From positions 80,605 to 144,604 of the forward strand of contig CAVZAM010000036.1 in assembly GCA_963773285.1 (NCBI GenBank): DNA of 64,000 nt, in the 5' to 3' direction. The notes under the pieces were generated by a model. That model ran no database searches. It saw nothing but the letters and a program-made list of their open reading frames with translations, and had not been told where the DNA came from. Shown here in pieces: positions 4,508-64,000 of this stretch; position 1 is the stretch's first letter, and every line of letters begins with the position of its first letter. The stretch comes from an uncultured delta proteobacterium (GTDB taxonomy: Bacteria; Desulfobacterota; Desulfobaccia; Desulfobaccales; 0-14-0-80-60-11). The position numbers and the translations under genes are program-made.

Positions 4508-4549
4508 CCGGGAAGCATCACACCCGAAGACTGTCTGAAATTATGGACT

Positions 4550-4591: not shown

Positions 4592-4660
4592 TCGGAAACC
4601 CTTATTGAGGGATGCGGCGGCCGGCAGTGCGGTGGTTAAGTCGGTGAGAAGCGGAGTGGA

Positions 4661-5344: not shown

Positions 5345-5670
5345 GGCTAACCTCCGGGGTTTCAGGAGACTCAGGCCTCCCCTCTGATTGATTTATCGTT
5401 GCCGCGTCCCATCGTTTTTTTAGTCCTGCCGTTGCCCCTGAAAGTCAGGAAAGACAAATTAGGGCCAGAAGTCAACAAATTATACCTTCTTTTCTTCATA
5501 TTGAAAAGCTAATTCATGGACTCGGGCCTGGCAAATTTTAGCCATACGGCTCACGATAATCCTGAGTATTCACTAAGGATTATAGAAGATCAATCTCATG
5601 AAAGCAAAGAAATTATTGCAGGCACGGCCGAGGTTGGCGCCCATAAAAAAATGTGCTAACGTGGGGCGCC

Positions 5671-7077: not shown

Positions 7078-7114
7078 CGACCCGCTCCTGTCCAGCCTTA
7101 ACGAGGCGCAGCGG

Positions 7115-37100: not shown

Positions 37101-37237
37101 GGGGGAGGGCCAGGGAGCGGCGGCTCCCTGTCCCCCCACCCCCCTCCCAACCCTTTGAGTTTGTGGCCCGAGCCTGGCCAGCACCATAAACTGGGATTGG
37201 GGAAGGGGGTGTAAGGGCCACCCTTAGCCCCCTCCCC
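37101..37237. repeat. G/C-tract intergenic repeat, copy downstream of treS-pep2 (module A 37101-37153, module B 37193-37237)
   Basis: Module A contains the hairpin CAGGGAGC-GGCG-GCTCCCTG (37111-37130). Module B overlaps the last codons of treS-pep2 (...SGGGG*). Confidence 0.6.
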
Positions 37238-40200
37238 CACTAACTTCCTTGGTCGACGCCTCCGGCCCCAGGAGCTGCAGGATGCCCCGCAGGGGCAGCT
37301 TTACCCAATCCGGCCGGTTGTTCAGTTCGTACCCCACTTCGTAGACCGCTTTTTCCAGGGTCAGGGCGCCGAGCAAAACCTGGAGTTCCTCCTCCTGCTG
37401 AGGCAGGAAGCGCCCCTCTCCGGCCACCTTGAGATATTCCTTGAGGTAGGTGGCCGACACCCACACCTGCCAGAAATCGGCCCATTGCTCCAGGAGCGTC
37501 AGATCCTCCGGGCGCACGTTCTTGGCCATGATGGCGTGGTTGGCGGCGTAGTGGAAGGACCGCAGCATGCCGGCCACGTCATTTAAGGCCGAGCGCTTCA
37601 GGCGCCGCTCCGACAGGGCCCGGGCCGGCTCCCCCTCGAAATCGATGATGATAAAGTCCTTGCCGGTATACAGCACCTGCCCCAGGTGGAAATCACCGTG
37701 GATCCTGATGCGCATGCCGGTGATCTTGCTTTCCACCACCGAGTGGAGGCGCTTGAAGACCTCCTCCTCCCGGTCCAGGACCTCCGAGGCCACCGGGCGC
37801 GCCTCTTCCGGCAAATACCTGAAGTGGGCCCGCAGGAGATGAAAAATCCGGGAGGTCAGGTTGCGCATGGACTGGTAAATGGAGCGCTGGTAGAGGCCGG
37901 TAAAGGGCACCGGCCCAAAGCTGGGTTCCTCGAAATGGGAGGCCAGGGCCAGGTGCATCTGGGCGGTGCGCTCCCCCAGCAGGCGGGCGCTCTCGAGATA
38001 GGCCCCGATCATCTCGCCGGCCAGGGCCGGCGGCTCCTCCCTGGCCAGGGCGGTCCAGGGCTGCCCCAGCCGCGCCTCCGGCTTAACCCCGGCCTGGCTG
38101 GTGAGCGCGGTTTCATAATAATGATGCATCACGTCCAGGGTGTATCTCCAGGCATCCCCCTGGTTGGGGACAAAACCGTGCAGGATCCCCATGGTGACCG
38201 GCTCCTGGCGTTCCCGGCGGTATTCCATGGCCCCGGCCACCGGCGCGATGTGGGTGAACGCGGTCTTTTCGGTGAGGAACCGCCCCAGTTCCAGGTCCAG
38301 GTTGACCCCCTCCTCGGCCTTGCGCAGGAGTTTTAAGACGAACAAGTCACCGTAATTAATGGACGTGTTGCTCTGTTCGGCCTGGATGATGGCCGACGGC
38401 ATGGGGGTTGGGCCCAGTTTTTGTAAACGGCGGAAGACGCTGGTGGGGGTCATCCACAGTTCGCCCTCCTGCCCCCAGAAATGGCGGCGGTGGGCGATGC
38501 TGGTGAGCAAAGCCTGGCGGAAGCCGGCCTCAAAGACGGCCTCGTAGAGGAGACACTCGCCCTCCGGGGTCAGGAGGCGGGCCACCACGGCATTCTTGAA
38601 CTCGCTTTGCACCCGGGCCAGATCATCCCCGCGGGCCACGGTCAGGGGGAGCACGTAGGTCTCCGGCTCCCCTTCCAGGTACCCAATCTGCACCATGGTG
38701 ATAAAAGCCTGGGCCTTGCCGAAGGGGAAGGGCAAGGTTTCCAGGACCGCAGCTTCCTTGATCTGGCGCAACTTGCCGCCGAACCAGCGGCAGTGCAGGA
38801 GGTATGGCGGCAAGAGATCCCCCAGGATGGCCCGGTCCCGCCCTTTAAACAGCTCCTCCACCGGCCCGGGGAGGGTGACCGTGGGGATCAGCACCTCCGA
38901 CGGCGCCGCCATCTGCGCGGTCAGGGGTACCTCGAGTGAAAAAATGTACACCGCGTGGGGCCCCAGGGTGATGAAGTAAGGATGATCGCCGATCCCGGGG
39001 AAGCGGTTGCGGGAAACCAGCTCTCTGGGGATCATCCCCTGGTATGCCGTCAGGTCCAGCTCCACATACTGCACGAACCGGGAGAGGTTGATGATGGCCA
39101 GGAGGCGCTCCTCCTGGTACTGACGCACAAAGACCAGGACCTTGTTGTTCTCGGGGAACAAAAACTCGATGCTCCCCCGGCTTAAGGCCTTGTAATGCTT
39201 TCTCAAGGCGATGAGCCGCTTCATGCCCCACAGGAGCGAGGTGGGGTTGTTCTGCTGGGCCTCGACGTTGGTGGCTTCGTAGTGGTACTCCGGGTCGGTG
39301 ATGACCGGCAGGTAGAGTCTCTGGGTGTTGGCCCGGGAAAACCCGGCGTTGCGGTCCGAGCTCCATTGCATGGGCGTCCGCACCCCGTCCCGGTCCCCCA
39401 GGTAGATGTTGTCACCCATGCCGATTTCGTCGCCGTAATAGAGCACCGGGGTTCCCGGCAGGGTGAAGAGCAGGAAGTTCATGAGCTCGATGCGCCGCCG
39501 GTTGTTCGCCAGGAGAGGGGCCAGGCGGCGGCGGATGCCCAGGTTCAGGCGGGCCTGGGGGTCCTTGGAGTAGACCCGGTACATGTAGTCCCGCTCCTCG
39601 TCGGTGACCATCTCCAGGGTGAGTTCGTCGTGGTTGCGCAGAAACAGGGCCCACTGGCAGTTGTCGGGGATCTGGGGGGTCTGCTGCAGGATGTCGACGA
39701 TGGGGAAGCGGTCTTCCATGCGCAGGGCCATGAACATGCGGGGCATCAGGGGAAAGTGGAAGGCCATGTGGGCTTCATCCCCCCGGCCGAAGTAGGCCGC
39801 GGCGTCCTCGGGCCACTGGTTGGCCTCGGCCAGGAGCATGCGATTGCTGTATTTGCTGTCCAGATGCTGCCGGAGCTCTTTAAGAAAGACGTGGGTCTCG
39901 GGGAGATTCTCGCAGTTGGTGCCGTCCCGCTCGAAAAGATACGGCACCGCGTCCAGTCTTAAGCCGTCCACCCCCATGCTCAACCAGAAGTCCATGGCCC
40001 GGAAGATGGCCCGGCGCACATCCGGGCTGGCGAAGTTCAGGTCGGGCTGATGGGAGTAGAAGCGGTGCCAGTAGTAGGCCCGGGCCACCGGGTCCCAGGC
40101 CCAGTTGGAGGACTCGAAGTCCTGAAAGATGATGCGGGCCTCGGGGTATTTGTCCGGGGTGTCGCTCCACACGTAGTAATTGCGGTAGCGGCTGCCCGGC

Positions 40201-40616
40201 GCGGCCCGGCGGGCCCGCTTGAACCAGAGATGCTGGTCGGAGGTGTGATTGACCACCAGTTCGGTGATGACGCGTAAGCCCCGGTACTTGGCCTCCCGGA
40301 GGAAGGTCTTGAAGTCCCGGAGAGTGCCGTAATACGGGTGGATGTCGGTGTAGTCGGCGATGTCGTAGCCGTCGTCCTTGAGGGGCGAGGGGTAAAAAGG
40401 CAGGAGCCAGATGGCCGTAATCCCCAGGTCCTGCAAATAATCCAGCTTGGCGGTGATCCCCCGGAAATCGCCGATGCCGTCCCCGTCGCTGTCAAAAAAG
40501 GCGCGGACGTGCATCTCGTAAATAATGGCGTCCTTGTACCACAGAGGGTCGTCACCCAAAAGGACAGTAAGGCTTTTTCTGGCCACCGGCACTTCCTCAG
40601 AGCCTGGAATTACCAA
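37224..40616 (-). CDS. treS: Trehalose synthase fused to maltokinase (TreS-Pep2/Mak)
   Basis: 1130 aa. The N-terminal GH13 half has '[19 protein letters not shown]', '[13 protein letters not shown]', '[13 protein letters not shown]'. The C-terminal kinase half has '[27 protein letters not shown]'. Confidence 0.9.
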   Translation of the reverse strand: [1130 protein letters not shown]

Positions 40617-40662
40617 TTGCGATTAGGCCATTGCTCCGCAAAAGACATAAAGAGCTTATGCT

Positions 40663-40836
40663 GGGAGGAGGGCCAGGGACTTGAAGTCCCTGCCCTCCCC
40701 CAACCCCTCTCCCAACCCGCAGAAGGTCCGGGAAAGGCAGAGGCTATGGCCTCGGCTTTCCCGGAAAAATTCTCCTCTAGGGATTGGGGGAGGGGTGTGG
40801 GGAGGGGAAGGGCCCACCGGCCCTTAGCCCCCTCCC
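40663..40836. repeat. G/C-tract intergenic repeat, copy upstream of treS-pep2 (module A 40663-40718, module B 40779-40836)
   Basis: Same order and orientation as the copy at 37101. The hairpin CAGGGACT-TGA-AGTCCCTG (40674-40692) keeps its lower stem, and the upper stem shows compensatory changes. Confidence 0.6.
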
Positions 40837-40882
40837 AGCTTAGCTTTGATTATGTCCTTTGCAGAGCAAAATGCATAATCGA

Positions 40883-42902
40883 TTACAAATAATAATCAAA
40901 ATCCCGTTCCGTCCGCACCAGGCGCCTGATGCGAAAGACGTGGGCCGGGACCACCAGGGGGTTGAGCTCCACGTAATTTTTGGGCCCGTGCCAGAGAAAG
41001 CGGGCTTCCCCCAAAAGGTCGTGGACCTGGTAGGGCTGGCGCGGGTTCAAGCCCAGCTCCTCCAGGGGCAGCTCCAGCCACCCCCCCTGGGTGAGGTGGG
41101 GATTGAGGTTCACCACCACCAGGATGATGTTGCTAAGATCCCCGGTATATTTGGCGTAGCAGATCAACTGCTCGTTGTCTATGGGGAAAAACCGCAGGTG
41201 CAGGTCCTGCTGCAGGGCCGGGTTCTCCCGCCGGAGACGGTTCACCCTGGCGATGAACTCCTTGAGGCTGCCGGGCTGGTCCAGGTCCCAATATTTTATT
41301 TCGTATTTCTCGGCGTCGAGCATACTCCTCGCCCCCCGGCTCCCTGGCCTCGTGCAGGCACTGCTCGAAGGGCGGGCCGTAAATGCCGTAGTTGGCCCCC
41401 AGGGTGGCGGCCAGCACCAGCCGGGCCCGAAAGGCCGGGGCGCCCCCGAACTGCAGGTATTCCGTCAGGATGTCCGGGGTGTTGGGCCACAGGTTGGGCC
41501 GGAAATACTCCTTCACCCCGGACTGGGTCAGCTCCGTAAAATACTGCGTCAGCTCCCACTTGGTGTTGCGCCAGGCAAAAAAGGTGTAGGACTGGCTGAA
41601 ACCCAGCTTGGCCAGGCGGTACATGACCTTGGGGCGGGTAAAGGCCTCGGCCAGGAAAATGGTCTCGGGGTGGCTGGCCTTGATCCCGGCAATGAGCCAC
41701 TCCCAGAAAGGAAAAGGCTTGGTGTGGGGGTTGTCCACCCGGAAGATCCGCACCCCCTGGTCGATCCAGAACAGCAAGACCTCCTTGAGCTCCTGCCACA
41801 GGGCCTCCCAGTCCTCGGTCTCAAAATTAAAGGGGTAGATGTCTTCGTATTTTTTGGGGGGATTTTCGGCGTATTGCACCGTGTGGTCCGGCCGCCAGCT
41901 AAACCAGCCGGGGTGCTCCCTGACGTAGGGGTGGTCCGGGGAGGCCTGAAACGCCATGTCCAGGGCAATGTCAATGCCGTAGTCCTGGGCCCGGGACACC
42001 AGGCGCCGGAAATCTTCCAGGGTCCCCAGCTGCGGGTGCACCGCCCGGTGGCCGCCCGCCGCCGCCCCTATGGCCCAGGGGCTGCCCACGTCCTCCGGGG
42101 TCACCTGGGTGGCGTTGTTGCGGCCTTTCCGGTGGGTGGTGCCGATGGGGTGGATGGGGGGGAAATACAGCACGTCGAAACCCAGGTGGGCCACATAGGC
42201 GAGCCGCGCCTCGCAGTCTGCCAAGGTGCCGTGCCGCCCCGGCTCCGTGGCCGCGGAGCGGGGAAACATCTCGTACCAGGTGCTGTAGCGGGCCTTGACC
42301 GGGTCCACCACCACGGTGAGGGTCTTGTCGTAGGCGGTGATGAACCGCCGGTCGGGGTAGCGGCCCATGACCAGGGTCAGCTCCGGATCAAGGGCCTGCT
42401 TTAGCTTCACCGCCTGGTCCCCCCCGGCGCTCAAGGCCCGGGCCCAATCGCCTAGGCCCTGGGCGTCCCGGGGGGCGGCCTGCTTTTGGGCCGCGGCGAT
42501 CAAATCGGCCCCCATGAGAAACTCCACCGCCAGGTCCTGCCCGGCCTCCGCCTTGACCTGCACGTCCCGCTGCCAGGTGCGGAACCGGTCGATCCAGGCC
42601 TCGATGGTGTAGAGGTAGCAGCCGAGCTCAGCAAGGGGAAACTCAGCCTGCCAGCGGTCGTTCACCAGCGGCTGCATGGCCACACTTTGCCAATCGGGTT
42701 CAGCCGCCCGGCGGTACAGCACCTGCGCCGCCAGAACATCGTGGCCGTCCACGAAGATATCCGCCTCCACCCGCAGCCGGTCCCCCACGATTCTTTTGGC
42801 GGGGAACACCCCCCCGTCTACTTCCGGGGCCACCGCCTCGATGGTTACCCGTTGCCGGGCCGCAGCCGCATCAAGGCGCTTATCTCTGTCACAGGTCACC
42901 AT
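40883..42902 (-). pseudogene. glgE: Alpha-1,4-glucan:maltose-1-phosphate maltosyltransferase GlgE, frameshifted as assembled
   Basis: 'YSTWYEMFPRS', 'GFDVLYFPPIHPIG', 'GVRIFRVDNPHTKP'. The pieces join at '...EAREPGGEEY|LDAEKYEIKYWDLD', with the shift near 41319-41337. Confidence 0.85.
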
Positions 42903-43078
42903 GGTATTCTCCCGGCACGAGATTCAACCTGAATATTTTCTGGGGGAAAGGGATAAAAGGCAGGGCCGATGAGGCCGAACCTGGCAAGCCAGCCCGGCGG
43001 CCTCCCGGCGGTGGCGTGTCATGGGCATGGCGATTATAGGGCAAACCCTCTGCTTCGAACCACGGGACCCGGCCGTCT

Positions 43079-46030
43079 TTACGGCAGCTTCTGCCCTTTT
43101 TCCCCGGTCCTGTCGGCTTTTTCCTCAGTCTGCCCCCAGAGCAGGGCCACCGGCAAGTCCTGGAAGAGGGGCGCGAGGGGCAGGGCTTTTTTGCGCCGGT
43201 CCTGGCGGCATGCCAGGGTCGCACCGTTAAAGACATTGACGTATTGTCCCGGGGCATCGGCCGGCAGGGTCAGGGAGGTTTTTTCCCAGGCCCCTTTTTT
43301 GAAGGAGCCGTCCCCGCCGGCAACCAGGCCGGTAAAAAACCTGGCCGCCGCCACCACGACCCAGGTCCCCTCAAAGTGGCGGGCAAAAGCCACCACGTGC
43401 TTGTCACGGGGACCCCTCGCCTTGACCGGGAGATAATCCCCCGCCATGAACAGGTCCTGATGGGCTTTGCGGAAGTTCAGGGCCTGGTAGATGACGTACA
43501 TCTTGAGCGCCCCGCTTTTCCAGGTCTCCTTGAGCCTGCCCGCCAGGGAGCCGGCATCTGGCGCGGCGGTCTTCTTGATGTCCCTCAAAAGCCGGAGCCG
43601 TTCCTGAAAATCCACCGGCCGGCGGTTATCCGGGTCCACCAGGCTGAGTTCCCAGAGTTCGGCCCCCTGGTACAAGTCCGGGACCCCCGGCGAGGCGATC
43701 TTCAAGAGAACCTGGGTAAGGGAGTTCAGGGCGCCGCAGTAGGCCAGATCAGCCTGCACGGCCTTGAAATCCTCCAGAAACTCCTGATTGTTGTGCTCAT
43801 CCAGGACCGCCTCCACAAACGCGGTCAAGGCGTTTTCATGCTCCAGGTTCGGCTTGATCCACCCGGTATTGATTTTGCCCTCCCGGGCCGCCTTGACGAC
43901 ATAAACCTTGATCCGCTCCTTGAAGTCCGCCATCTGCTTTTCGAAAAGCGGCCAGGCGCCGATCAGGGTCTGGTAGAGGAAATACTCCTGGTTCCGGTCC
44001 GGTACTGCGATGCCGCCCACCAACAGCTTCTTGGAGCGATGGAAGGCGCTCCACCGTTTCAGGCAGGCCTCCCAGGCCTCGGGCATTTCAGACAGGACCG
44101 CTATGCGGGTGCGCACGTCCTCGCCCCGCTTGGTGTCGTGGGTGGACGTGGCATTTAAGCCGTGCGGGATAAGCCGCTGCCTTTGCTGATTAAAGCGGTG
44201 CAGATCCTCCGGGGAGACGGCGTTCAGGCTGCCTCCCACCTCGTTTAAGGAGACCAGGGGGTTGTAGACGTACAGCGCGGTGTCCTCGAACCCCTTGGCC
44301 ATGATGGGGCCGGTGAACTGCTGCCAGCGCATCACGAGGTGCAGCCAGGCCTTTTTCTGGTCCTCCGGCAGGTTGGGGGGAAATTCCAAAAAAAGCACCC
44401 GCCGGACGAAGTCCAGGGCCACGGGATTGAGGTTGGGGTTTTTGCGCCGGACCTCGGCCAGGGCCTCCTCCAGGAAGGCCTGGTCAGGGGGGGGCACTGC
44501 AAAGCTCCGGATATAGGTGCGATAGCAGTCCAGGCCGGCAATAAACTCCTTCAGGACCGCCTGGAGGTCGTTTTTGGACACGTCCCGGGCCTGCCGGTCC
44601 TGTTCCGCCAGGACCGCGAGGCGATGCCCCAGGGCCTCCACCTCGCCCCCGAACTGGGTTTCCAGGAGCAGCTTCTTTTTGTCATAGACCACGTCGGCCA
44701 AGTCCCCTTCGCAGTGGGTGAAGCGGGCATAAATCCTTTTGATCTGCCTGTATCCCTGCGGCTCCACGAACAGGCCGTTCACCCGGTCCAGGTGATCATA
44801 GCCCGTGGTGCCGGCCACCGGCCACGACGCCGGTATGGTCTCGTCCTCGGCCAGGATCTTTTCCACCACCAGGTAAAATTTCTGCTCGCCGGCGTCAGGG
44901 GCCTTGGCCACTGCGGCGACCCGGTCCTGGAGGCGCCTCAAATACCCCTCCGGGTCAAACAGGCCGTCGATGTGGTCCACCCTCAAGCCGGTGATCCTGC
45001 CGTCCTTCACCAGGCTGAACATGAGGGCGTGAGACGCCTCGAAGACCTTGGGGTCTTCCACCCTGAGACCGATGAGATCGTTGACGCTGAAAAAACGCCG
45101 GTAATTGATAAGGTCCAGGGCCACCCGGAACGAGGCCAGGCGGTAGGGCTGCAGCCGGAGCAGCCGGTCCAGCAGGTTAAAGCTGTTGGGGTCCCCCTTC
45201 TTACCGTTGAAGATGGCTAAATTATCATCAAGGAATTTTTTGATGGCGGGGTTTCCCTGGTAATGGAGCCAGAGGTTCTTTTTAAGGACATCCTTCTGAC
45301 GCTGGCGTTCCTGAAGTTTGCTGTTGCTGCTGACGGTGCGGGGGGGCAGGTAGTCGATCAGGGTAATAAGACCCCGCAGGCTCAGGATGGCCGGGTCCCC
45401 CTCCCCCAGTTCCCGGGTCAGGTCGTCGAGCCGGTGGGACAGAATAAGGTTGTAAGTCTTGGGGTCCAGAGGGAATTTCTGGTCGTAGTAGCGGACGCTG
45501 AAACCCTGCTCCTCGAGGGCCAGCTTCATCTCCTGCGCTTCAAGGGTCTGGCCGTAGGACTCGCCCAATATGGGCTGCAGGACCTTGCCATCCAGGATAC
45601 CGTGGGGGGGGTGCCAGTTGATGTCAAAAAAGATGGCATAGGGGGAGGCCGGGCCGTCTTCCAGGACATCGTGCCACCAGGGGTTGTCCTGGCTCAGGGC
45701 CATGTGGTTGGGCACAATGTCCAAAAGCAGGCCCATGCGCCGCGCCTTCAAGGTGCGGGCCAGGGCGTTGAACGCCGCCCGGGTGCCCAGCTCCGGGTTG
45801 ATTGCCAGGGGGTTGGTGACGGAGTAGCCGTGGATGCTGCGCCGCCTGGCCTTGAAAAAGGGGGAGGAGTACAGGTCGGTGATGCCCAGGTCATGGAGAT
45901 AAGGCACCAGGGCCTTGGCTGCGTCAAAGCGGAAGCCGTGGTGAAACTGGAAGCGGTAGGTGGCGGCGGGCACTCGGAAGCCGGTCATTTTTCCCCCGGG
46001 CGGCGCCGGGTCAGTTATCTCCCCTGACAT
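43079..46030 (-). CDS. treY: Malto-oligosyltrehalose synthase
   Basis: 'PAATYRFQFHHGFRF..A..LVPYLHDLGITDLYSSPFFKA...HGY', 'LLLDIVPNHMA'. The start may instead be the ATG at 45988. Confidence 0.9.
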   Translation of the reverse strand: MSGEITDPAPPGGKMTGFRVPAATYRFQFHHGFRFDAAKALVPYLHDLGITDLYSSPFFKARRRSIHGYSVTNPLAINPELGTRAAFNALARTLKARRMGLLLDIVPNHMALSQDNPWWHDVLEDGPASPYAIFFDINWHPPHGILDGKVLQPILGESYGQTLEAQEMKLALEEQGFSVRYYDQKFPLDPKTYNLILSHRLDDLTRELGEGDPAILSLRGLITLIDYLPPRTVSSNSKLQERQRQKDVLKKNLWLHYQGNPAIKKFLDDNLAIFNGKKGDPNSFNLLDRLLRLQPYRLASFRVALDLINYRRFFSVNDLIGLRVEDPKVFEASHALMFSLVKDGRITGLRVDHIDGLFDPEGYLRRLQDRVAAVAKAPDAGEQKFYLVVEKILAEDETIPASWPVAGTTGYDHLDRVNGLFVEPQGYRQIKRIYARFTHCEGDLADVVYDKKKLLLETQFGGEVEALGHRLAVLAEQDRQARDVSKNDLQAVLKEFIAGLDCYRTYIRSFAVPPPDQAFLEEALAEVRRKNPNLNPVALDFVRRVLFLEFPPNLPEDQKKAWLHLVMRWQQFTGPIMAKGFEDTALYVYNPLVSLNEVGGSLNAVSPEDLHRFNQQRQRLIPHGLNATSTHDTKRGEDVRTRIAVLSEMPEAWEACLKRWSAFHRSKKLLVGGIAVPDRNQEYFLYQTLIGAWPLFEKQMADFKERIKVYVVKAAREGKINTGWIKPNLEHENALTAFVEAVLDEHNNQEFLEDFKAVQADLAYCGALNSLTQVLLKIASPGVPDLYQGAELWELSLVDPDNRRPVDFQERLRLLRDIKKTAAPDAGSLAGRLKETWKSGALKMYVIYQALNFRKAHQDLFMAGDYLPVKARGPRDKHVVAFARHFEGTWVVVAAARFFTGLVAGGDGSFKKGAWEKTSLTLPADAPGQYVNVFNGATLACRQDRRKKALPLAPLFQDLPVALLWGQTEEKADRTGEKGQKLP

Positions 46031-46149
46031 AAAATTTATTCTCCCATATTCAGGTACTTAATGACCTGTCCCGGTCGATCCTCCCGCCTGAGATTTTCCG
46101 GGGGTGGATGATAGACCGGTCGGCGGGTGCAGATACTTTTCCCCCGACT

Positions 46150-47992
46150 TTATTCCTTCTGGAGGTAAACCACGGCGGACAAGGGTTGTAGCGTGAGGGA
46201 TCTATCCCCCTCCCCTTGCACTCCCGCCAGGGCCGGCGCCCCAGGGCCCCCCCAGCGGGCGTCGGCGGAGTCGAGCCTTTTTTCCCAGTCGCCCCCCGGC
46301 CAGGGGAACGACAGGGTCTGGGCCTCCTTGCTGAAAGAAAACAAGGCCAGGGCCTGGGTGGACTCCCACATCATCCGCACCCACAACACCTTCTCTTTCT
46401 CATAATCCCGCACTTCCCGCTCCCGCCTCCCCAGGTCCACGGCAAGGTTAAGCTCCTTCCTGAGCCCGATCAGCTCCCGGTAAAATTCCCAGAGGGTCTG
46501 GTGATGGCCGTCCCGGCGGAGATGGTGATTGAGCTTGGCCCTGAGAAAGGTGTCTTCCTCACAGGGATCCAGGGCCTCCCCGGTGTAATTGGCGGCCTCG
46601 AACTGCCGCTGGCGCCCGTGACAAACGGCTTCACGCAGGGCTTCATCCGTGTGGCTGACAAAATAGACAAAATGGGCCGTCTCGCCGTATTCCTCCCCCA
46701 TGAACAGCAAGGGGATAAAGGGTGACAGGAGCACCACGGCGGCGGACAGCTTCAAGGCCTCGAAGGAAACCAGGTGGCTCGTGCGCTCCCCCCCGGGGCG
46801 GTTCCCCACCTGGTCGTGGTTCTGGGAGAACACCAGCAGGCGCTCCGGCGCAATGTCCCGGGAGGAGGAGCCCCGGCGGTGGTTCCGGTAGGCGGAGTAC
46901 TCCCCGGTGTAAATGAAGCCTTCCCGGTACGACTTGGCCAACTGGCTCAGCCGGCCGTAATCCACATAGTAGCTCGCCTGCTCCCCGGTGAGCAGCGTGT
47001 GCAGGGCGTGGTGAAAATCGTCGCACCAGTGGACGTCCAGGCCATATCCGCCGATTTCCGGCTCCCGGAAAAAGCGCACGTCGTTTAAATCGCTTTCCGC
47101 CATGAGATAGAACTTCCGGTTCCGGATCTCCTGGAGCTCGTGGATGGTCTCGGACAACTCCGCAATGAAGGGTTTGGGAGACAGGTCGATGATGGTGTCG
47201 AGGGCGTCCAGGCGCAGGGCGTCCACATGAATTTCAAAGAACCAGTATATGGCGTTTTCGATGAAAAACCGCCGCACCTCGTCACTGCCCGGACCGTCGG
47301 AGTTGAGGGCCGAACCCCAGGGGGTCTGGTAGCGCTGGCTGAAATAGGGACCGTATTTGCCCAGGTAGTCGCCCTCCGGGCCCAGGTGGTTGAAGACCAC
47401 GTCCAGGACCACGGCCAGGTCCCGCCGGTGGCAGGCGTCCACGAGCTTTTTCAGGCCGTCCGGCCCGCCGTAGGTGTTCTGCACCGCAAAGGGGAAGACC
47501 CCGTCGTAGCCCCAGTTGCGCCCCCCGGGGAATTGGGCCACGGGCATAACCTCGATGGCGGTGATGCCCAGGTCCTTCAGTTCGTCCAGGTAGGGGATGA
47601 CGGCCTCAAAGGTGCCTTCCGGGGAGAAGGTCCCCACGTGCAGTTCATAGATGATGTAGTCCCTCAGGGGCAGGCCGCACCAGTGCCCGTCCCGCCAGGG
47701 GAATTGGGTGCCCACCACCTGGGAGGGCCCGTGCACCCCCTGGGGCTGGAACCGGGAGGCGGGGTCCGGAAAATCGTCGCGGTTGTTGATCCGATAAAAA
47801 TACCGAGAGCCGGGCTCCACCCCTGAAATCACGTCAAAAAAATAGCCCCGGGTCGCCTTTCTGCAGAGGGAAAAGATCCTCCCGGGGGGAGACCAGCCGG
47901 ACATGCATCTGCTCAGCGTTTGGGGCCCACACCAAAAACCTGGTGCGCCCCCCTCCCAGGTAAATGGCACCCAAATTGACCGATGGTTTCAT
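46150..47992 (-). pseudogene. treZ: Malto-oligosyltrehalose trehalohydrolase, frameshifted near the 5' end as assembled
   Basis: The true N-terminus 'MKPSVNLGAIYLGGGRTRFLVWAPNAEQMHVRLVSPREDLFPLQKGDPG' (ATG 47992) is in another frame. It joins 'YFFDVISGVEPGSRYFYRI' if one base is removed from the C4/G3 run at 47846-47852. GH13 motifs 'ITAIEVMPVAQFPG..NWGYDG', 'ALRLDA', 'SQNHDQVGNR'. Confidence 0.85.
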
Positions 47993-57214: not shown

Positions 57215-58096
57215 TCAGCCCTTGGGGTTCAGGTGCTCCAGGACCCGGGCGATGGCGCTGACATCTTCGTCGCCCCAGCCCCGGGCCACCCCCTCCTGGT
57301 AGAGCTGCAGGAGGGTGCTGGCGGCGGGCACCGGCGCGCCCAGCTCATAGGCGGTATCGATGATGAACTTGGCGTCCTTGGTCATGTGCTTTAAGGGGAA
57401 GGCGGCGGGATAGGTGTGGTTTTGCAGGTTGGGGGCCTTCACCTGGAACATGCCGCAGTTCAGGGGCCCGGAGAAGATCGTGTCCAGCATGGCCTCCTCG
57501 GTCAGTCCGCCCAGCCGGCCGAAATTCAGGACCTCGGCAAAGGCCTCCATCATCAGGCCCAGGAGCAGGTTGATGAACATCTTCATCATGGAGCCCTGGC
57601 CGGCCTCGCCGCAATAGATCACCTTTTTGCCCATGGCCAGCAGCACCGGCTCCACGGCCTGCACCTGGTCCCGGGGGCCGCCCGCCAGGATGAGGAGGGT
57701 GCCCTCCTCCGCCGGCTTTTTGGTCCCCGACACCGGCGCGTCGATGAACGCGGCCCCGGTGGGTTTGAGCCGGGCCGTCAGCTCCCGGGTGTAGCTCGGC
57801 GCCACGGAACTCATGTTGACGAAATATTTGCCGGCACTCAAGCCCCCGGCGGCCCCTCCCGGTCCAAAAAGCAGCTCTTCCAGGGCCTCGGGCCCGGTGA
57901 CCATGACAATGATGACCTCGCTGGCCGCGGCCAGGGCCTGGGGATTGTCCGCCCGGCCGGCCCCCTGCTGCACCAGGGGTTCGGCTCTTTCCGGCGAGCG
58001 GTTGTAAACCGTGACCGGGTAGCCCGCCTTGAGGAGATTGGCAGCCATGGCGTTCCCCATGATGCCCAGACCGATAAACCCGATTTTTTGCTTCAT
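57215..58096 (-). CDS. NAD(P)-dependent beta-hydroxyacid dehydrogenase (3-hydroxyisobutyrate dehydrogenase/GarR family)
   Basis: 'KIGFIGLGIMGNAMAANL', 'DAPVSG', and the C-terminal 'LKHMTKD' region. Confidence 0.85.
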   Translation of the reverse strand: MKQKIGFIGLGIMGNAMAANLLKAGYPVTVYNRSPERAEPLVQQGAGRADNPQALAAASEVIIVMVTGPEALEELLFGPGGAAGGLSAGKYFVNMSSVAPSYTRELTARLKPTGAAFIDAPVSGTKKPAEEGTLLILAGGPRDQVQAVEPVLLAMGKKVIYCGEAGQGSMMKMFINLLLGLMMEAFAEVLNFGRLGGLTEEAMLDTIFSGPLNCGMFQVKAPNLQNHTYPAAFPLKHMTKDAKFIIDTAYELGAPVPAASTLLQLYQEGVARGWGDEDVSAIARVLEHLNPKG

Positions 58097-58433
58097 GGCA
58101 TATCCTCCCTGTCTCTCCAACCGGTTAATGGTGTTTTGTTAGCTTGCTGGCGAGTCTCAGGGCAGGAAGATGACAACGATTAGTTTAAGATTATTCACTT
58201 TCCATAGATTGTCAATGTAAGGCACATCAAGTGTATGGCCGGAAAGGTCAGAGCGAACGGGAATTCCGTTGAGATTCAAGGACTTCCTGATAAATAAGGG
58301 CGGGCTCCCCGGTTATCTTGATCCGTTCACGAGTCAGCTAGGTCGTTTTAATTAGCCCGTCGAGCACCATTCTGCCTCTCTGGCGTCGACCGGCCTTCAT
58401 GGGTCACGATCCACAAGAAAACTGGGATGGACG

Positions 58434-59602
58434 CTAAGGGAGCCGCGCCATGATCCAGAAGGCGGGAAGGTAGTCTATCCTGGCCAGGAGCAGACCGGTG
58501 ATGATGGGCCCCGCGGCGTGGCCTACGTCAAAAATGGTGCCGAAGGTGCCTATGGCGGTGCCGAAATGACGTTCGTGGCAGATATCCGCCACCAGGGCCG
58601 CAGTGGAGGAGGTCACCAGGGCCTCCCCCAATCCGAAACAGGCAGCGGTGACCAGGAGAAAAGAGAAAGTCCTCAGCAAGGGGATAGCCCCGAAGGCCAG
58701 TGCGCCTAACGCCATGCCCCCGATGATCAAGGGGCGGCGGCCGTGCCGGTCGGAAACCCGGCCCATGACGGGTTTGGCCAGGATGGTCGCCAACACCTGG
58801 ACTCCCCAGAGGAGACCCGCCTGGAACTCGTTCAGTCCCACCAGTTTCACGGCATAGATGGGCAGAAAGGCCTCCAGGGCCCCCACCTTCATGTTCGTGA
58901 GGCTCTCCATGGCAGAGGTAACCACGACCCGCCGGTGCTGAGGACTTCCCTGATTCCCGTAGCAAAGCGGCTGAGAGATTCCTTGAGTCCCTTACTCCGT
59001 TCCACGGTTTCCCGGCCCCGCAAGGCGGTCAGGGCCAGGAGCAGGGAGAGCAAACCGGCTGCCCCGCTCACCAGGTAAACCACCTGGAAATCAAACAGGG
59101 TGAGGCTGCCGGTGGCCAGGCGATAAAGGATAAGGCCGCCCAGCGGTGCCCCCACTAGGTTGCCGATGATGGTTACCGAGGAAAACCAGGAGAGCAGCTC
59201 CCCTTTGCGCCCCCCCGCGGCGTCCATCACCACCGCCATGGCTACCGGCCCATAGATGGCGGTGGCAAAGCCATGGAGGAAACGGATCAGGATGAGGAAC
59301 TGGTAACTATCAACCAGAAGGTAGGTGAAGGGCATGACTGCAAAGACCGCCAGACCAGCCAGCAGGGTCTTCCTGCGGCCGATGAGGTCGGACAGCGCCC
59401 CTGAGGGTAACTTGAAGAAGATGCCGGTGACCGTGGAGATGCCCACGATAAAGCCGATGGCCTCGGGGCCGGCCCCTAGGTAGAGGGCAAACAGGGGGAG
59501 CACCGGGGTCCGGGCCAAGGCGTAGGAGAACCGGGCCAGAAAGCCCACGGCGCACAACGCATTATAGGGATTCAGCAGGGCTATCAGCGTTCCCCAATCC
59601 AC
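58434..59602 (-). pseudogene. MFS transporter, frameshifted as assembled
   Basis: 'PSGALSDLIGRRKT' and 'MGRVSDRHGRRP' loop motifs lie in the two halves. The shift is near 58926-58936. Confidence 0.75.
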
Positions 59603-59686
59603 TCAAGGTTTAGCGGCCGGCAGGGGACGGTAAAAGAAGGCGCGAGTGGAGCGACCTTTAGGGAGATGGAGGTACGGGGGCCTGGT

Positions 59687-60634
59687 TCAGGTGATGCCGG
59701 CAGTCAGCCCGGTAACCTCGTAGAGGCTATATTCACCGCTTTTGCCGGGGAGAGTGACCCTGAGGGCGCGTCCTACCTGAACGTGGTTTTTTACCAAGTC
59801 GTAGGTGTCGGCCGAAATGAGGAACCTGGTCCCCGCCTGCTTGTTGGCGGCCTCGATACGGCTGGCCAAGTTCACCGCGTCGCCTATAACCGTCATTTTC
59901 TTGTTGCCGGGCACTCCCAGATTGCCGGCCACCACCTGACCGAAGTGCAGCCCGAGGCGGATGTGGAACTTTCTTTTAAACAATTGCTCTAAATAAGGCC
60001 CGAAGTTATCCACTGCCGTCAGCAGGGCGAGACCGGCCCTGACGGCCCGGAGGGACCCCTCGGCGGGGTCTTCGGACTCGAAGAGGGCCATGAAGCCGTC
60101 ACCCATGTAGCTGTCGACCTGGCCGCCGTGCTGGTCTATTACTTTGCCCACCAAGTGAAAATAGCGGTTCAAAACATGGATCACATCATAAGGGAGCAGA
60201 GCCTCGGCGAAGGGGGTGAAGCCGATGATGTCGGCGAAGAGGATGAGCACATGCTTCTCCACCCCCACCCCCCCCGGTTCGACCCCCCTGATGAAGAGGC
60301 TGCTCAGTTCCACATCTTCATCGTCAAGGACCAGTCGTCGAAGAGTAACGTCACCGGTGACCCTGGTCTGGCAGGCCAGGCGGATGCCGGCATCAAACTG
60401 CAACTGCATGGCAATGTTTTCCTCCGGCCCCGAACGCGGCCGGCAATGTTCCAGGCCCTCCTGGATTACGACCCGGCAGGTGGAGCAGCGGCCGTTGCCC
60501 CCGCAGACGTGGGCCAGGGGAATCCCGGCCCGCACCGCGGCCTCAAGGATAGTCTCCCCTTCCCCTATCTCCACATCCCTGTCATCCGGCAGGAAACGAA
60601 TCCTGGGCATATAAAAAGATATCATGTCTCCCAC
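59687..60634 (-). CDS. [2Fe-2S] ferredoxin domain fused to a class III adenylate/guanylate cyclase
   Basis: 'CGGNGRCSTC...RLACQ' (C-x5-C-x2-C...C). Then 'VLILFADIIGFTPFAE', 'SYMGDGFMALF', 'GLHFGQVVAGNLG...MTVIGDAVNLASRIE'. The start could also be an internal ATG (60625 or 60610). Confidence 0.8.
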   Translation of the reverse strand: MGDMISFYMPRIRFLPDDRDVEIGEGETILEAAVRAGIPLAHVCGGNGRCSTCRVVIQEGLEHCRPRSGPEENIAMQLQFDAGIRLACQTRVTGDVTLRRLVLDDEDVELSSLFIRGVEPGGVGVEKHVLILFADIIGFTPFAEALLPYDVIHVLNRYFHLVGKVIDQHGGQVDSYMGDGFMALFESEDPAEGSLRAVRAGLALLTAVDNFGPYLEQLFKRKFHIRLGLHFGQVVAGNLGVPGNKKMTVIGDAVNLASRIEAANKQAGTRFLISADTYDLVKNHVQVGRALRVTLPGKSGEYSLYEVTGLTAGIT

Positions 60635-60777
60635 GGTATTTTAAGATTTTTGGCAAAAGCCCACGACAACCTTCGAGTCTGACGGGCAAAAGGGCGCCCG
60701 GGGCGGTGGCGGCTGTTGCATATCGCCCCGGCATGCCCTAAGATAGCTGGTATCGAGATGGTCCGAGGAGGTTCGGG

Positions 60778-61242
60778 ATGGTGCTATATCTGGTCCAGCA
60801 TGCCGAGGCCAAAAGCGAGCAGGAAGACCCGCGGCGGGATCTCACCGAAAAAGGCCGCATGGATCTGGAAAGCGTGGCCCATCACCTGAAAAGACTGAAG
60901 GTGACCGTAAACCAGATCGTCCACAGCGGCAAGACCAGAGCCCTGACCACGGCCCGCATCATGGCCGAGCACCTGCAGCCGCCCGCAGGCATGGAAGAGG
61001 CCCCGGGGCTGGCCCCCCTGGATGACCCCCAGGTCTTTGCCGACCGCCTCGCCGCCGCGGACCAGGATCTCATGGTGGTGGGGCATCTCCCCCACCTGGG
61101 GAAGCTGGCTGGCTTACTGATGAGCGGTGACCAGGAAAGAGCTGTGGTTAATTTTCAGATGGGGGGCGCGGTGCGCTTAAGGCGCATGGCCGAGGGCCAG
61201 TGGGCCGTGGATTGGGTGATTGTCCCGGAAACGATCCTCTAG
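60778..61242 (+). CDS. sixA: Phosphohistidine phosphatase SixA
   Basis: 'LYLVQHAEA' (RHG-type His), 'SGKTRALTTA', 'MVVGHLPHL'. Confidence 0.8.
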   Translation: MVLYLVQHAEAKSEQEDPRRDLTEKGRMDLESVAHHLKRLKVTVNQIVHSGKTRALTTARIMAEHLQPPAGMEEAPGLAPLDDPQVFADRLAAADQDLMVVGHLPHLGKLAGLLMSGDQERAVVNFQMGGAVRLRRMAEGQWAVDWVIVPETIL

Positions 61243-61272: not shown

Positions 61273-61767
61273 TTACCCTGAAACCGCGGCCGGCCGCACC
61301 TGGCATTCCACCCCCCACTCCTTCAGCCTGGCCGTGATCACTCCCAGCAGTTCCTCCAGCTTCTCCTGCATCAACTCGCTCAGCTCCAACCCAAGTTCGA
61401 TGGTCTGGGGCTGGATGCCGATGAGGCAGACTTCCCGGGGGGCGGTGCCCAGGAGCTGGGCCGCGGCCAGGACGTCCATCAGGCCCAGGTGGTGCAGGGA
61501 CCCCTTGGGCCCGAAGAGGGCCGGAATTTCCCGACCCTCTAAGATGCCGATGTAACCGGGTTCCTTGCGGAAATTCACCGCGTCCACGAAGAGCACCCGG
61601 TCGCGGCCCTCAATGTAGGGCAGCAGGTCCAGGCCCGAGGTGCCCCCGTCCACCACCTCCAACCCGGGGGGCAGCACCCCGCGGTCTTCCAGGGCCCGCA
61701 CCGCCGACACCCCCACCCCTTCATCCCGCATGAGGATGTTGCCTAAGCCGATGAGCGTTATTTGCAT
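61273..61767 (-). CDS. hybD: [NiFe] hydrogenase maturation endopeptidase
   Basis: 'ITLIGLGNILMRDEGVGV', 'VVDGGTSGLDLL', 'LFVDAV', 'SLHHLGL'. Confidence 0.85.
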   Translation of the reverse strand: MQITLIGLGNILMRDEGVGVSAVRALEDRGVLPPGLEVVDGGTSGLDLLPYIEGRDRVLFVDAVNFRKEPGYIGILEGREIPALFGPKGSLHHLGLMDVLAAAQLLGTAPREVCLIGIQPQTIELGLELSELMQEKLEELLGVITARLKEWGVECQVRPAAVSG

Positions 61768-61860: not shown

Positions 61861-61893
61861 CAATAAAAAGGGGCGAACCATAGGTCCGCCCCT
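61861..61893 (-). terminator. Intrinsic-terminator-like hairpin between hybC and hybD
   Basis: On the minus strand: AGGGGCG-GACCTATGGTT-CGCCCCT, then TTTTTATT. Confidence 0.45.
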
Positions 61894-61906: not shown

Positions 61907-63607
61907 TTACCTGACTTTCACCTGGATGATGGGCTGGCCCTCGGCGTCGGTCATGTGGATGGCGCAGGCCAGGCAGGGATCGAAGGAGTGGACCGTGCGG
62001 ATGACTTCCAGGGGCTTGTCGGGGTCCGCCACCGGGTTCCCCACCAGGGAGGCCTCGTAGGGCCCCAGGGCGTCGCTCTGGTTCCTGGGCCCGGAGTTCC
62101 AGGTGGACGGCACCACCGCCTGGTAGTTCTTGATCTTGTTGTCCTCGATGACGATCCAGTGGGACAAAATACCCCGGGGCGCCTCGTGGAAGCCGTAGCC
62201 CCGGGACTCCCCGGCCTTCATGACGTATTTGTTGCTGGTTTCGGTGTCACCCTTGCCGATGTTGTCCATCAGGGCCTGCCACTGCTTGCTGGCCTCGTCG
62301 TAAAGCACGGCGCAGCGGATGGCCCGGGCGGCGTGGCGGCCGATGGTGGAGTGCAGGGCCTCCGGCCCCACCTTGGCGCCCGCCAGTTTGCTGACCGTGT
62401 CCAGGGCCTGGGTGGCGTATTTTTTGGTGGGCTCGTGGCCCGCGGCCAGCATGCACAGCACGTTGGCCAGAGGCCCCACCTGGGCCGGCTTGTCGTTGAA
62501 GGTGGGGGACTTGACCCAGGAGTACTTGCCGTCGGCCGCAAAACCGCTGTACTTGGGAATGGTGGTCTCGTCCCAGGGATGCTTGGTCCAGTCGCCGTCA
62601 TACCAGGAGTGCTTGATGGACTCCTTGACGCCGTCCCGGAAGAAGTCGTCGTGGTACGAAGTGATGGGCTTGAAGGTCTTGAGGTCGGCGTTGGTGATAT
62701 AGCCGCCGGGCAGGCTGAAGACCGTGCCCTTGGTGTCCATGGGCATGTCCGGCGCCGACAGGTAGTTGGTGACGCCAGCCCCGTATTTGGTCCAGTCGGC
62801 GTACATGGCCCCCACCACGCAGACGTCCGGCAAGTAGACGTTCTTGACGAAGGCGCCCACCTCGTCGATGAGGGTCTTGATGTAGTAGAGGCGCTCCATG
62901 TTCAGGGCCGAGGGGCTGTCCAGGTTGATGGGGCTCGAGACCCCGCCCACGATGAGGTTCTGGACGTGGGGGGTCTTGCTCCCCAGGATGGAGACCACCA
63001 TGTTGATCTTGCGCTGATACTCCAGGGCCTGGAGGTAGTGGGTCACCGCCAGGAGGTTGACCTCCGGGGGGAGCTTCATGGCCGGGTGCCCCCAGTAGCC
63101 GTTGGCGAAGATGCCCAACTGCCCCGAAGCCACGATGGCCTTGAGCTTGTCCTGGACCGCCTGGAGCTCCTGGTAGCTGTTCCGGGGCCAGGGCGACAGC
63201 CCGTCGGCCAGCTGCGCCGCCTTTTTGGGGTCGGCCTTGAGCGCCGAGGTGATGTCCACCCAGTCCAGGGCCGACAGGATGTAAAAATGCACGATGTGGT
63301 CATGAGTGGCGTGGGCCGCCATCATCATGTTGCGGATGTACTGGGCGTTCAAGGGTACTTCGATATTCAGGGCGTTTTCGATTGACCTCACCGAGGTCAA
63401 GGCGTGTACGGTAGTTCAGACCCCGCATATTCGCTGGGTGAAGGTGGGAGCGTCCCGGGGGTCCCTCCCCAGCAGGATGACCTCGATGCCGCGCCACATC
63501 TGCCCCGACGACCAGGCGTTGGTGACCTTGCCGCCGTCCACCTCGCATTCGATGCGCAGATGCCCTTCGATCCGGGTTATGGGGTCGATAACGATTTTCT
63601 TGGCCAT
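61907..63607 (-). CDS. hybC: Hyb-type (group 1) [NiFe] hydrogenase large subunit with an in-frame TGA (candidate Sec) at the second Cys of the N-terminal motif
   Basis: Collinear with E. coli HybC from '[14 protein letters not shown]' to '[11 protein letters not shown]' plus a tail. ORFs 63416..63607 and 61907..63400 share one frame and are separated only by the TGA at 63416-63418 (QRICGV-TGA-TTVHAL). Confidence 0.85.
63382..63400 (-). promoter_or_regulatory. SECIS-like hairpin 15 nt downstream of the hybC in-frame TGA
   Basis: UUGACCU-CGGUG-AGGUCAA, a perfect 7-bp stem. The loop starts at nt 26 from the U of UGA. Confidence 0.45.
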
Positions 63608-63628
63608 AGTTTACGTCTCCTTAAAGGG

Positions 63629-64000
63629 TTAGGCGTGCTCGACCTGAGGCAGCACCGGGAATCTCTTGACAAAATAGAGGTAGGCCATCAACTCGAAGGC
63701 CACGATACCCAGGGTGATGAGGATCTCCTGGGTGGCCGGGAAATAACGCCATCCCGGGCCCGGGTCGAAGCCGATGAGGAAGGCGTTGAAGCGGTACAGG
63801 GCCGCTGCCAGGATCAGGGAGCTCGACACCACGAAGAGCCAGCGGAGGTCTTTTTGCCAGGCCGGGTTGGCCAGCAGCAGGACGGGCATCAGGAACAGGA
63901 GGTTTTCCGCCATAAAGGCCACGGTTTGGGGACCCGAGGTGAAAACCGGCGCCCCCCTGAAGATGAGATCGCCCAGGCGCACCACCAGGTAGATCACCGC
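63629..64000 (-). CDS. hybB: NrfD/HybB-type integral membrane subunit (3' part; the gene continues past the window end)
   Basis: Hydrophobic C-terminal segments ending '...FVKRFPVLPQVEHA'. It sits immediately upstream of hybC, as in hybOABCD. Confidence 0.6.
   Translation of the reverse strand, partial: AVIYLVVRLGDLIFRGAPVFTSGPQTVAFMAENLLFLMPVLLLANPAWQKDLRWLFVVSSSLILAAALYRFNAFLIGFDPGPGWRYFPATQEILITLGIVAFELMAYLYFVKRFPVLPQVEHA

Follow-up and report, generated by a model that had tools for sequence, protein, structure and literature searches.

An in-frame UGA codon at the position of the Ni-Fe bridging cysteine in a Hyb-type hydrogenase gene from an uncultured member of the Desulfobacterota, and its probable reading as selenocysteine

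Background

Can a natural [NiFe] hydrogenase carry selenocysteine (Sec) at the ligand that bridges its two metals? The question is raised by a gene for a hydrogenase large subunit of the HybC type that lies close to one end of a 64,000-nucleotide (nt) stretch of DNA from an uncultured delta proteobacterium of the Desulfobacterota (contig CAVZAM010000036.1 of assembly GCA_963773285.1, positions 80,605 to 144,604), which is referred to in its entire length as the window. The gene, hybC, is read from the minus strand, and its frame is interrupted once, by a TGA at window positions 63416-63418, which is codon 64. A first-pass annotation of the window had proposed that Sec is inserted here, in the place of the bridging Cys, under the direction of a bacterial Sec insertion sequence (SECIS) immediately 3' of the codon. 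The comparisons reported below, of the TGA codon, of the selection acting on either side of it and of the adjoining hairpin, support that proposal. Because the TGA is conserved across species, because the frame is under purifying selection both 5' and 3' of it and because the hairpin is conserved and covaries, we consider that the reading of UGA-64 as Sec is very probably the best explanation for the locus.

The position of the codon is what makes the case unusual in relation to the textbook view of the [NiFeSe] hydrogenases, in which selenium occupies a terminal Ni ligand, a placement that has been connected with tolerance of O2 and with a catalytic bias in favor of H2 production. In the known structures of [NiFe] enzymes, the metals are held by two CxxC pairs, in each of which it is the second Cys that forms the Ni-Fe bridge.

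The in-frame UGA codon of hybC

The hybC gene begins with an ATG at 63607-63605, which is preceded at a distance of 9 nt by a Shine-Dalgarno-like AAGGAG (63617..63622, minus strand, as read from the sequence). From this start, 63 sense codons (63419..63607, minus strand; MAKKIV...TFTQRICGV, including Cys61, the first Ni ligand) lead up to the TGA (63416..63418), and the identical 63-residue product in other contigs is recognized by the Pfam family HoxH/NiFeSe_Hases. In the same frame 3' of the TGA there are 502 further sense codons, numbered 65-566, which run through ...DPCLACAIH...QVKVR to a TAA at 61909-61907 (61907..63415 with the stop). When joined across the TGA, the two parts specify a product of 566 residues, of which residues 1-565 are collinear with residues 1-566 of Escherichia coli HybC (802 bits, E = 2.2e-240). 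The alignment places the TGA on the second Cys of RICGVC, so that its counterparts are Cys64 of E. coli HybC and Cys79 of E. coli hydrogenase-1 (Hyd-1), a Ni-Fe bridging ligand. The C-terminal metal-binding motif, DPCLACAIH (61955..61981, minus strand), aligns with DPCMACAVH of HybC and consists entirely of Cys at its two ligand positions, both of which are specified by TGC (61975-61973 and 61966-61964). An extension of 15 residues that follows this motif is expected, from what is common in the family, to be removed by a HybD-type protease. In all of these respects, namely the single interruption of the frame 63607..61907, the collinearity with HybC, the location of the TGA at the second Cys of RICGVC and the all-Cys composition of the C-terminal motif, the first-pass annotation described the gene correctly.

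The organism represented by the window uses UGA as an ordinary stop. This codon terminates 10 of the 28 window genes that have Pfam support, and a genome-wide reassignment of UGA was rejected on this count; the event at codon 64 would thus be a site-specific recoding and not the product of a variant genetic code. A scan of the window for other pairs of open reading frames (ORFs) that are joined in the same frame by a TGA yielded no credible second selenoprotein site. The annotation had gone further and stated that all of the other gene disruptions in the window are 1-nt indels. This statement needs qualifying, since it was covered here by spot checks only: the gene for a major facilitator superfamily (MFS) transporter at 58434-59602 is broken by a frame change, its two ORFs overlapping at 58889-58925 in different frames, and no further plausible in-frame TGA site was found in the window.

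Conservation of the codon and of the reading frame

The pattern R-[IVM]-C-G-[IVM]-TGA-T-x-x-H-A, written as degenerate DNA and scanned against one genome per bacterial or archaeal species, gave at least 119 matches. Among the 119 matches listed, 116 are genuine large-subunit genes, with the conserved N-terminal region 5' of the TGA and ~500 open codons 3' of it; the 3 chance matches seen among them compare with ~9 that were expected from an information-content estimate. The carriers of the TGA among these matches are mostly Anaerolineae and other Chloroflexota, and the remainder include Desulfobacterota (Desulfobulbia, Desulfobacterales and Desulfobacca-like organisms), Nitrospirota, one metagenome-assembled genome (MAG) of the Nitrospinaceae and one of the Rokubacteria. 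We refer to genes with TGA at this codon as Sec-type and to genes with TGC or TGT as Cys-type. In the collected loci as a whole, 140 of 183 motif sites are TGA, a set that includes the genomes of at least 116 species, and 43 are TGC or TGT. For the closest metagenome relatives in which the motif lies inside the fetched DNA (n = 54), the corresponding numbers are 12 and 42.

A protein search with the joined sequence retrieved mostly Cys-type homologs of 566 amino acids (aa), together with a number of matches, 85-98% identical to the query, that are all cut at one place and have lengths of 497, 485 or 474 aa. The contigs from which the shortened matches derive contain a 63-aa ORF, a TGA at the same codon, the rest of the gene and the same hairpin. 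Gene callers accordingly report two ORFs for such a gene, and in the window there is a TTG 15 nt past the TGA at which a second ORF could start, as if the large subunit were made in the form of two assembling polypeptides of 63 and ~497 aa; the VhuA/VhuU proteins of Methanococcus voltae are a precedent for a large subunit that is split. Such an arrangement is very unlikely here, because termination at the UGA would delete the fourth metal ligand and a restart at the TTG would drop the residues TTVHA, including a conserved His. The possible restart codon, moreover, varies in position and type from clade to clade, as is reflected in the three ORF lengths, and the 15-nt spacer has no evident Shine-Dalgarno sequence.

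The 63-aa product that ends in the TGA is identical in the window and on 15 contigs that come from at least five samples. In one of these contigs (locus L215, 98.5-99.5% identical to the window in DNA sequence) the TGA and the hairpin region are the same as in the window, a Desulfobacca-labelled MAG has a large subunit that is 86% identical to that of the window, and the Sec-type large subunits of Chloroflexota extend the series down to ~50% protein identity. These occurrences bear on the suspicion that the TGA might be a sequencing or assembly error. Disruptions of the indel type, which are typical of long-read assemblies, do exist in the window and in its relatives from ENA, but substitutions are not the usual fault of such assemblies, and the same TGA recurs in assemblies made independently from five or more samples as well as in JGI metagenome contigs of related organisms. 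An error at this codon is about as improbable as any explanation that we have considered.

The frame also evolves as a coding sequence on both sides of the TGA. Between the window gene and its Sec-type relatives, the ratio of nonsynonymous to synonymous substitution rates (dN/dS) is 0.04-0.14 for the 63 codons 5' of the TGA and 0.13-0.23 for the 502 codons 3' of it, and the comparison with Cys-type orthologs gives the same values. Purifying selection on both sides of the TGA implies that the whole frame is translated. A pseudogene created by a nonsense substitution of TGC to TGA would have required one nucleotide change, and some credence might be lent to it by the other disrupted genes of the window, of which the split MFS gene is an example, and by the presence of Cys in the nearest relative of the window gene, designated P0001. 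It is at variance, however, with the recurrence of the TGA at an identical position in at least 116 species and down to 50% protein identity, with the ~500 open codons that follow it, with the dN/dS values 3' of it and with the conservation and covariation of the adjoining hairpin. We regard the pseudogene explanation as effectively refuted.

The hairpin 3' of the UGA codon

The SECIS-like hairpin of the window, UUGACCUC-GGU-GAGGUCAA (63382..63400, minus strand), can be drawn either with 8 base pairs (bp) and a GGU loop or with 7 bp and a 5-nt CGGUG loop. Its stem begins 15 nt past the UGA and its loop 23 nt past it, with G at loop positions 1-2; the hairpin is located at 63400-63382, where the first-pass annotation had placed it. 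A G at position 1 or 2 of the apical loop is the rule for the SECIS of the Group 4 Sec-type hydrogenases (PMC13582414).

To compare genes with and without the TGA, 119 unique Sec-type contexts and 42 unique Cys-type contexts were scanned for hairpins with a stem of at least 5 bp, a loop of 3-8 nt and a loop start 16-37 nt past the codon, the last of these being the spacing criterion of bSECISearch. A hairpin with G at loop position 1 or 2 was found in 119 of 119 Sec-type contexts and in 27 of 42 Cys-type contexts; at a free energy (dG) of -6 kcal/mol or below, the counts were 116/119 and 16/42, respectively. The loops of the Sec-type hairpins begin 17-33 nt past the codon. The mean dG was -8.2 kcal/mol for the Sec-type and -5.0 kcal/mol for the Cys-type contexts (Mann-Whitney p = 3e-7), and the hairpins of the Sec-type contexts are the more stable ones despite a lower GC content (mean of the 75-nt context 0.555, as compared to 0.639 for the Cys-type).

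The hairpins of four clade groups differ in design and are nearly identical in placement. The clade of the window, together with the Nitrospirota, has YUGRCCUC-GGY-GAGGUCRR with the loop 23 nt past the UGA; the Chloroflexota have C[A/U/G]GCUC-CGUGC-GAGC[U/A/C]G, also with the loop at 23 nt; the Desulfobacterales have CUCGGUC-CGGGC-GAUCGAG with the loop at 27 nt; and the Desulfobulbia have ACGCACUG-GYUU-CAGUGCGU with the loop at 18 nt. The stems covary, which speaks for a genuine structure. In the Chloroflexota, all 312 of 312 pair cells in 52 distinct sequences are paired. One of the pairs in this group occurs as A-U in 30 sequences, U-A in 20 and G-C in 2, and connects the first base of a Ser, Cys or Gly codon with the wobble base of an Ala codon. 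The covariation score of the Chloroflexota was reached by none of 500 shuffles, and it collapses in all slid registers. For the 22 sequences of the window's clade plus the Nitrospirota, 93% of the cells are paired, with variation of the kinds U-A/C-G, U-A/U-G/C-G and A-U/G-U. The hairpin has left a trace in the protein as well: in the clade that shares at least 78% identity with the window gene, Ser75, which is specified by a UCA codon in the 3' arm, is present in 14 of 14 Sec-type and 1 of 51 Cys-type sequences, and this residue is the protein footprint of the hairpin. The hairpin is a conserved and covarying element that is tied to the TGA, and its properties match the criteria for a bacterial SECIS, the apical-loop G rule among them.

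The first-pass annotation had asked whether related genomes keep the TGA and whether the hairpin covaries with it. The codon is kept in at least 116 species, the hairpin accompanies it in every one of the 119 contexts and the covariation is evident. Two outcomes that would have counted against its proposal, that the orthologs all have Cys and lack the hairpin or that the gene is a decaying pseudogene, did not materialize, since many orthologs have the TGA with the hairpin and dN/dS is far below 1.

In one of the collected loci (L084:716-830, from MAG MFD00991.bin.2.24) there is an extra base inside the hairpin, CTCGGTCGAGG, which shifts the frame 9 codons past the TGA, and in another (L214) the large-subunit gene is fragmented. 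Both look like assembly indels and not like biology, and gene calls in such assemblies need care.

Selenocysteine or cysteine at UGA-64

Several observations weigh against the insertion of Sec at UGA-64. Pfam annotation of the ~37 ORFs of the window detected no SelA, SelB or SelD, and none was found in the collected loci; likewise, a tRNA search of the 64-kb window and an ARAGORN search of all collected loci found no tRNA-Sec. The fold of the single window sequence is unremarkable in comparison with shuffles (z = -0.79 for a 66-nt stretch), so that the hairpin alone proves nothing and derives its weight only from the cross-sequence comparison, and no Rfam family matched the hairpin, either in a search of the whole window at the gathering threshold or in a search of 63330-63450 at E <= 10. 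In the nearest relative, P0001, this position is Cys although its large subunit is 95.6% identical to that of the window, which means that Sec is dispensable on an almost identical backbone. To our knowledge, the natural enzymes of the bridging-Sec type are known from sequence only, and none has been characterised at the protein level. There is, finally, the existence of tRNA(ReC), which depends on a SECIS and could decode the same UGA as Cys rather than Sec, as has been discussed for the Group 4 enzymes (PMC13582414).

With regard to the Sec-insertion genes, selABCD was detected in ~90% of the genomes with Group 4 Sec-type hydrogenases, some of them in Chloroflexota and Desulfobacterota (PMC13582414), and by analogy the presence of the machinery is plausible in the organism of the window as well. 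The alternative based on tRNA(ReC) envisages that UGA-64 is recoded by way of SECIS and SelB but with a Cys-accepting tRNA, and that the enzyme has Cys at all four positions, either always or when selenium is scarce. It derives some appeal from the ease with which Sec- and Cys-types interchange within the clade of the window, and from the finding of tRNA(ReC)-like genes, which decode UGA with a downstream SECIS, in ~17% of the genomes that have Sec-type Group 4 hydrogenases (PMC13582414). In the same survey, however, tRNA(ReC) was a minority feature, with ~2.3% among the genomes with single-Sec types, and no tRNA gene was found in the window or in the collected loci. To keep a UGA codon and a hairpin under constraint in over 100 species for the sake of inserting Cys would also bring no obvious gain over TGC. 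We consider this alternative improbable, if less so than the others that have been mentioned, and retain Sec as the preferred reading of UGA-64.

Operon, enzyme class and proposed mechanism

The window ends within the hydrogenase operon. Upstream of hybC lies the 3' part of hybB, which encodes a membrane subunit of the NrfD type (63629..64000, minus strand, represented by ORF 63629..63997) and is cut by the window end. The 122-aa fragment by itself had no Pfam match; it is 98.5% identical in nucleotide sequence to L215, where it falls within a 381-aa NrfD gene at 3011-4156. Downstream, at 61273..61767 (minus strand), there is a gene for a HybD-type hydrogenase maturation endopeptidase (Pfam HycI, E = 5.6e-28). 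Between hybC and this gene, directly past the hybC stop, a GC-rich hairpin with a T-run (61869..61893, minus strand) resembles a terminator; it is a consensus match only, and such matches are no more numerous in the region than in shuffles. Pfam annotation of the window ORFs showed no second hydrogenase.

The full operon can be read in two relatives that are 94-99% identical to the window (L215 and L216), where the order is small subunit (402 aa), HybA-type 4Fe-4S protein (321 aa), NrfD-type HybB (381 aa), large subunit and protease. The same operon exists in loci L001 and L007 and in the Chloroflexota locus L036. The small-subunit gene of the window itself lies past position 64000, and its export signal was therefore read in L216, whose small subunit has the twin-arginine translocation (Tat) motif SRRDFVKF near the N-terminus and a hydrophobic membrane anchor at the C-terminus. 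In the Protein Data Bank, the best match to the window's large subunit is the large chain of E. coli hydrogenase-2 (2.2e-240), followed at 1e-138 to 1e-166 by Hyd-1, MBH and the Desulfovibrio enzymes. The operon is shared even by Chloroflexota Sec-type loci whose large subunits are only ~50% identical to that of the window. By its sequence and its operon, the enzyme is assigned to Group 1c, and is predicted to be a Hyb-type periplasmic, membrane-anchored and quinone-linked hydrogenase.

Based on these assignments, a mechanism can be proposed in which the hairpin 15 nt past UGA-64 would act as a bacterial SECIS and recruit SelB with its Sec-tRNA(Sec), whereupon the ribosome would insert Sec in what we take to be a SelB-dependent step and go on for 502 codons. 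Homology with HybC and with other [NiFe] structures suggests that Ni and Fe would be bridged by Sec64, as a selenolate, and Cys549, as a thiolate, and that Cys61 and Cys546 would be the terminal Ni ligands, so that the fourth metal ligand is Sec in place of Cys. Electrons from H2 would then leave through the Tat-exported small subunit and reach the quinone pool by way of the HybA ferredoxin and, after it, the NrfD-type HybB. By analogy with an engineered variant of Hyd-1 (C79U, see below), selenium at this position may raise the affinity for H2, with activity being kept and O2 tolerance lowered. As a matter of speculation along the same lines, the natural enzyme may gain H2 affinity where the partial pressure of H2 is low.

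Relation to known hydrogenases

E. coli hydrogenase-2 (HybOABC; Group 1c; PDB 6EN9, 6EHQ) resembles the system of the window in the collinearity over 565 residues, the order of the operon, the Tat signal on the small subunit and the DPCxxCxxH motif with its C-terminal extension. Residue 64 is specified by TGC in the former and by UGA with a SECIS-like hairpin in the latter, and the hosts are, respectively, an enterobacterium and an uncultured member of the Desulfobacterota that, judged by the 86% identity mentioned above, is related to Desulfobacca.

The canonical [NiFeSe] enzymes (of Desulfomicrobium baculatum, 1CC1; Desulfovibrio vulgaris Hildenborough Hys, 2WPN/5JSH; and the methanogen Fru/Vhu) are similar in that one of four metal-binding Cys residues is replaced by a UGA-encoded Sec. 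Their Sec is located at the first Cys of the C-terminal motif, DPUxxC, as a terminal Ni ligand, whereas the C-terminal motif of the window enzyme is DPCLAC and its predicted Sec is at the N-terminal bridging position. They are, in addition, soluble Group 1a or Group 3 enzymes and not of the Hyb type, and their PDB chains cover only residues 177-565 of the window protein (E ~1e-83 to 1e-77). The window enzyme accordingly has neither the C-terminal Sec nor the close sequence relationship that would place it among them.

What it does have, a UGA at the second Cys of the N-terminal CxxC and a SECIS-like hairpin, are the features of an N-terminal CXXU class. Among the Group 4 hydrogenases, 47 were found in which Sec is confined to the N-terminal motif, and in 27 of these the motif is CXXU (Takano et al. 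2026, PMC13582414); the bridging role of the second position of this motif is stated in that report, and the CXXU codons were accepted there as Sec on the same apical-loop G rule and on the co-occurrence of selABCD. The report also cites Baltazar et al. [quoted passage not shown] The first-pass annotation, which knew of no described hydrogenase with Sec at this position, was thus out of date in view of the Group 4 CXXU enzymes and, as far as the citation goes, of the two Group 1 sequences. The window gene and the Group 4 CXXU genes are alike in motif position, UGA read-through, the hairpin with G in its loop and the interspersed occurrence of Sec and Cys types. Group 4 consists of energy-converting complexes of the cytoplasm, in which Sec types make up ~0.2%, whereas the window enzyme belongs to the respiratory Group 1c, and Sec is common in its kind (12 of 54 close relatives; at least 116 species).

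A bridging Sec has also been constructed artificially. The C79U variant of E. coli Hyd-1 had 13% of the native H2 oxidation activity, which made it the best of four single Sec variants (Evans et al. 2021, PMC8020662); it assembles, its Km for H2 is lower and its activity is lost in O2. Like the predicted enzyme of the window, it is a membrane-bound Group 1 hydrogenase whose homologous bridging ligand is Sec. It differs in that the Sec is specified by a UAG codon and inserted with the help of EF-Tu, and in that the protein is an O2-tolerant Group 1d enzyme without co-evolved surroundings. Evans et al. 2021 refer to "purported examples" in which a bridging Cys is substituted (PMC8020662), and a 2026 review of prokaryotic selenoproteomes lists hydrogenase large subunits with UxxC only, and exclusively from sulfate reducers and methanogens (PMC13188914). 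Our search of the literature, which left out subscription literature including Baltazar et al. 2011, found no report of Sec in HybC-type or Chloroflexota hydrogenases. The window gene, then, belongs to an N-terminal CXXU kind that is already known, from sequence alone, and barely described. The scale of its occurrence, with at least 116 species, roughly one in five of the close metagenome relatives, more than one SECIS design and at least 13 changes of state, may itself be unreported.

Interchange of selenocysteine and cysteine, and its significance

On a neighbor-joining tree there were at least 13 changes between the Sec and Cys states, a number that should be read in light of the roughness of the tree and a biased sample. 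The differences between the window protein and that of P0001 are unevenly distributed, in that 12 of 25 amino-acid differences fall within residues 65-101 (window 63304-63415; binomial P = 1.4e-8). Met95, in the same interval, is present in 14 of 14 Sec-type and 2 of 51 Cys-type sequences of the clade with at least 78% identity. The Sec codon, its hairpin and the flanking sequence may move together as a recombination block, which could be described as a short N-terminal "Sec cassette".

A comparison of second-shell residues between Sec- and Cys-type proteins established no general Sec-linked signature. Ser75 and Ile76, which had been candidates for such residues, are accounted for by the 3' arm of the hairpin; Met95 marks only the sub-clade of the window; and Gln99 tracks lineage and not Sec, being present as well in the Cys-type paralog of the following locus.

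A Chloroflexi MAG (SRR2107183_bin.79, locus L040:493-7343) contains one Hyb-type operon in which the large subunit is encoded twice in tandem, first by a gene of the Sec-type (3815-5533, with its TGA at 4001-4003) and directly after it by one of the Cys-type (5643-7343); the two products are 77% identical to each other. They could be a selenium-dependent pair of isoenzymes that share one small subunit.

The data show that candidate bridging-Sec enzymes, as predicted from their genes, are common in the uncultured anaerobes of soils, peat, sediments and groundwater. A broader proposition, which we advance tentatively and with somewhat less than even confidence, is that the bridging-Sec Hyb-type (Group 1c) hydrogenases constitute a large and unsurveyed natural class, with at least 116 species, four clade-specific SECIS designs, at least ~13 Sec/Cys switches, some perhaps by recombination of the cassette, and at least one tandem Sec/Cys operon. 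If this were true, it would overturn the textbook view of the [NiFeSe] hydrogenases as C-terminal UxxC enzymes that are limited to sulfate reducers and methanogens. A natural Ni-Se-Fe bridge would allow the role of selenium to be asked about at the other kind of ligand, for which Hyd-1 C79U has so far been the only material; matched Sec/Cys pairs are on offer in the window gene and P0001 (95.6% identity) and in the tandem paralogs of L040. There would be consequences for annotation as well. Because gene callers split a Sec-type hybC into ORFs of 63 aa and ~497 aa, surveys of hydrogenases and counts of selenoproteomes miss or mis-score these genes.

Other features of the window

The region 3' of the hydrogenase operon (57215-61242) contains a block that is conserved in L213, L215, L216 and the P0060 contig and consists of a histidine phosphatase-like gene, a gene for a fusion of a 2Fe-2S ferredoxin domain with an adenylate/guanylate cyclase, and a gene for an NAD-binding dehydrogenase. 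The block might represent a redox-sensing cyclase that is linked to the hydrogenase, or it might be plain gene order that is shared by close relatives.

The split MFS transporter gene lies in the segment 58122-59679, where it is distributed over two frames (ORFs 58434-58925 and 58889-59602, both MFS_1). The segment is absent from L213-L216, which are 94-99% identical to the window, and in these loci the guanylate-cyclase gene abuts the gene for the NAD-binding dehydrogenase. It may be a strain-specific insertion with a disrupted gene or may reflect an assembly indel.

Farther from the operon, at 37224-47970 on the minus strand, is a cluster of four large genes of the alpha-amylase family that is unrelated to hybC and corresponds to an alpha-glucan pathway of the GlgE type; among its products are a protein of 1130 aa that resembles a trehalose synthase/maltokinase fusion and a maltosyltransferase of 589 aa that is GlgE-like.

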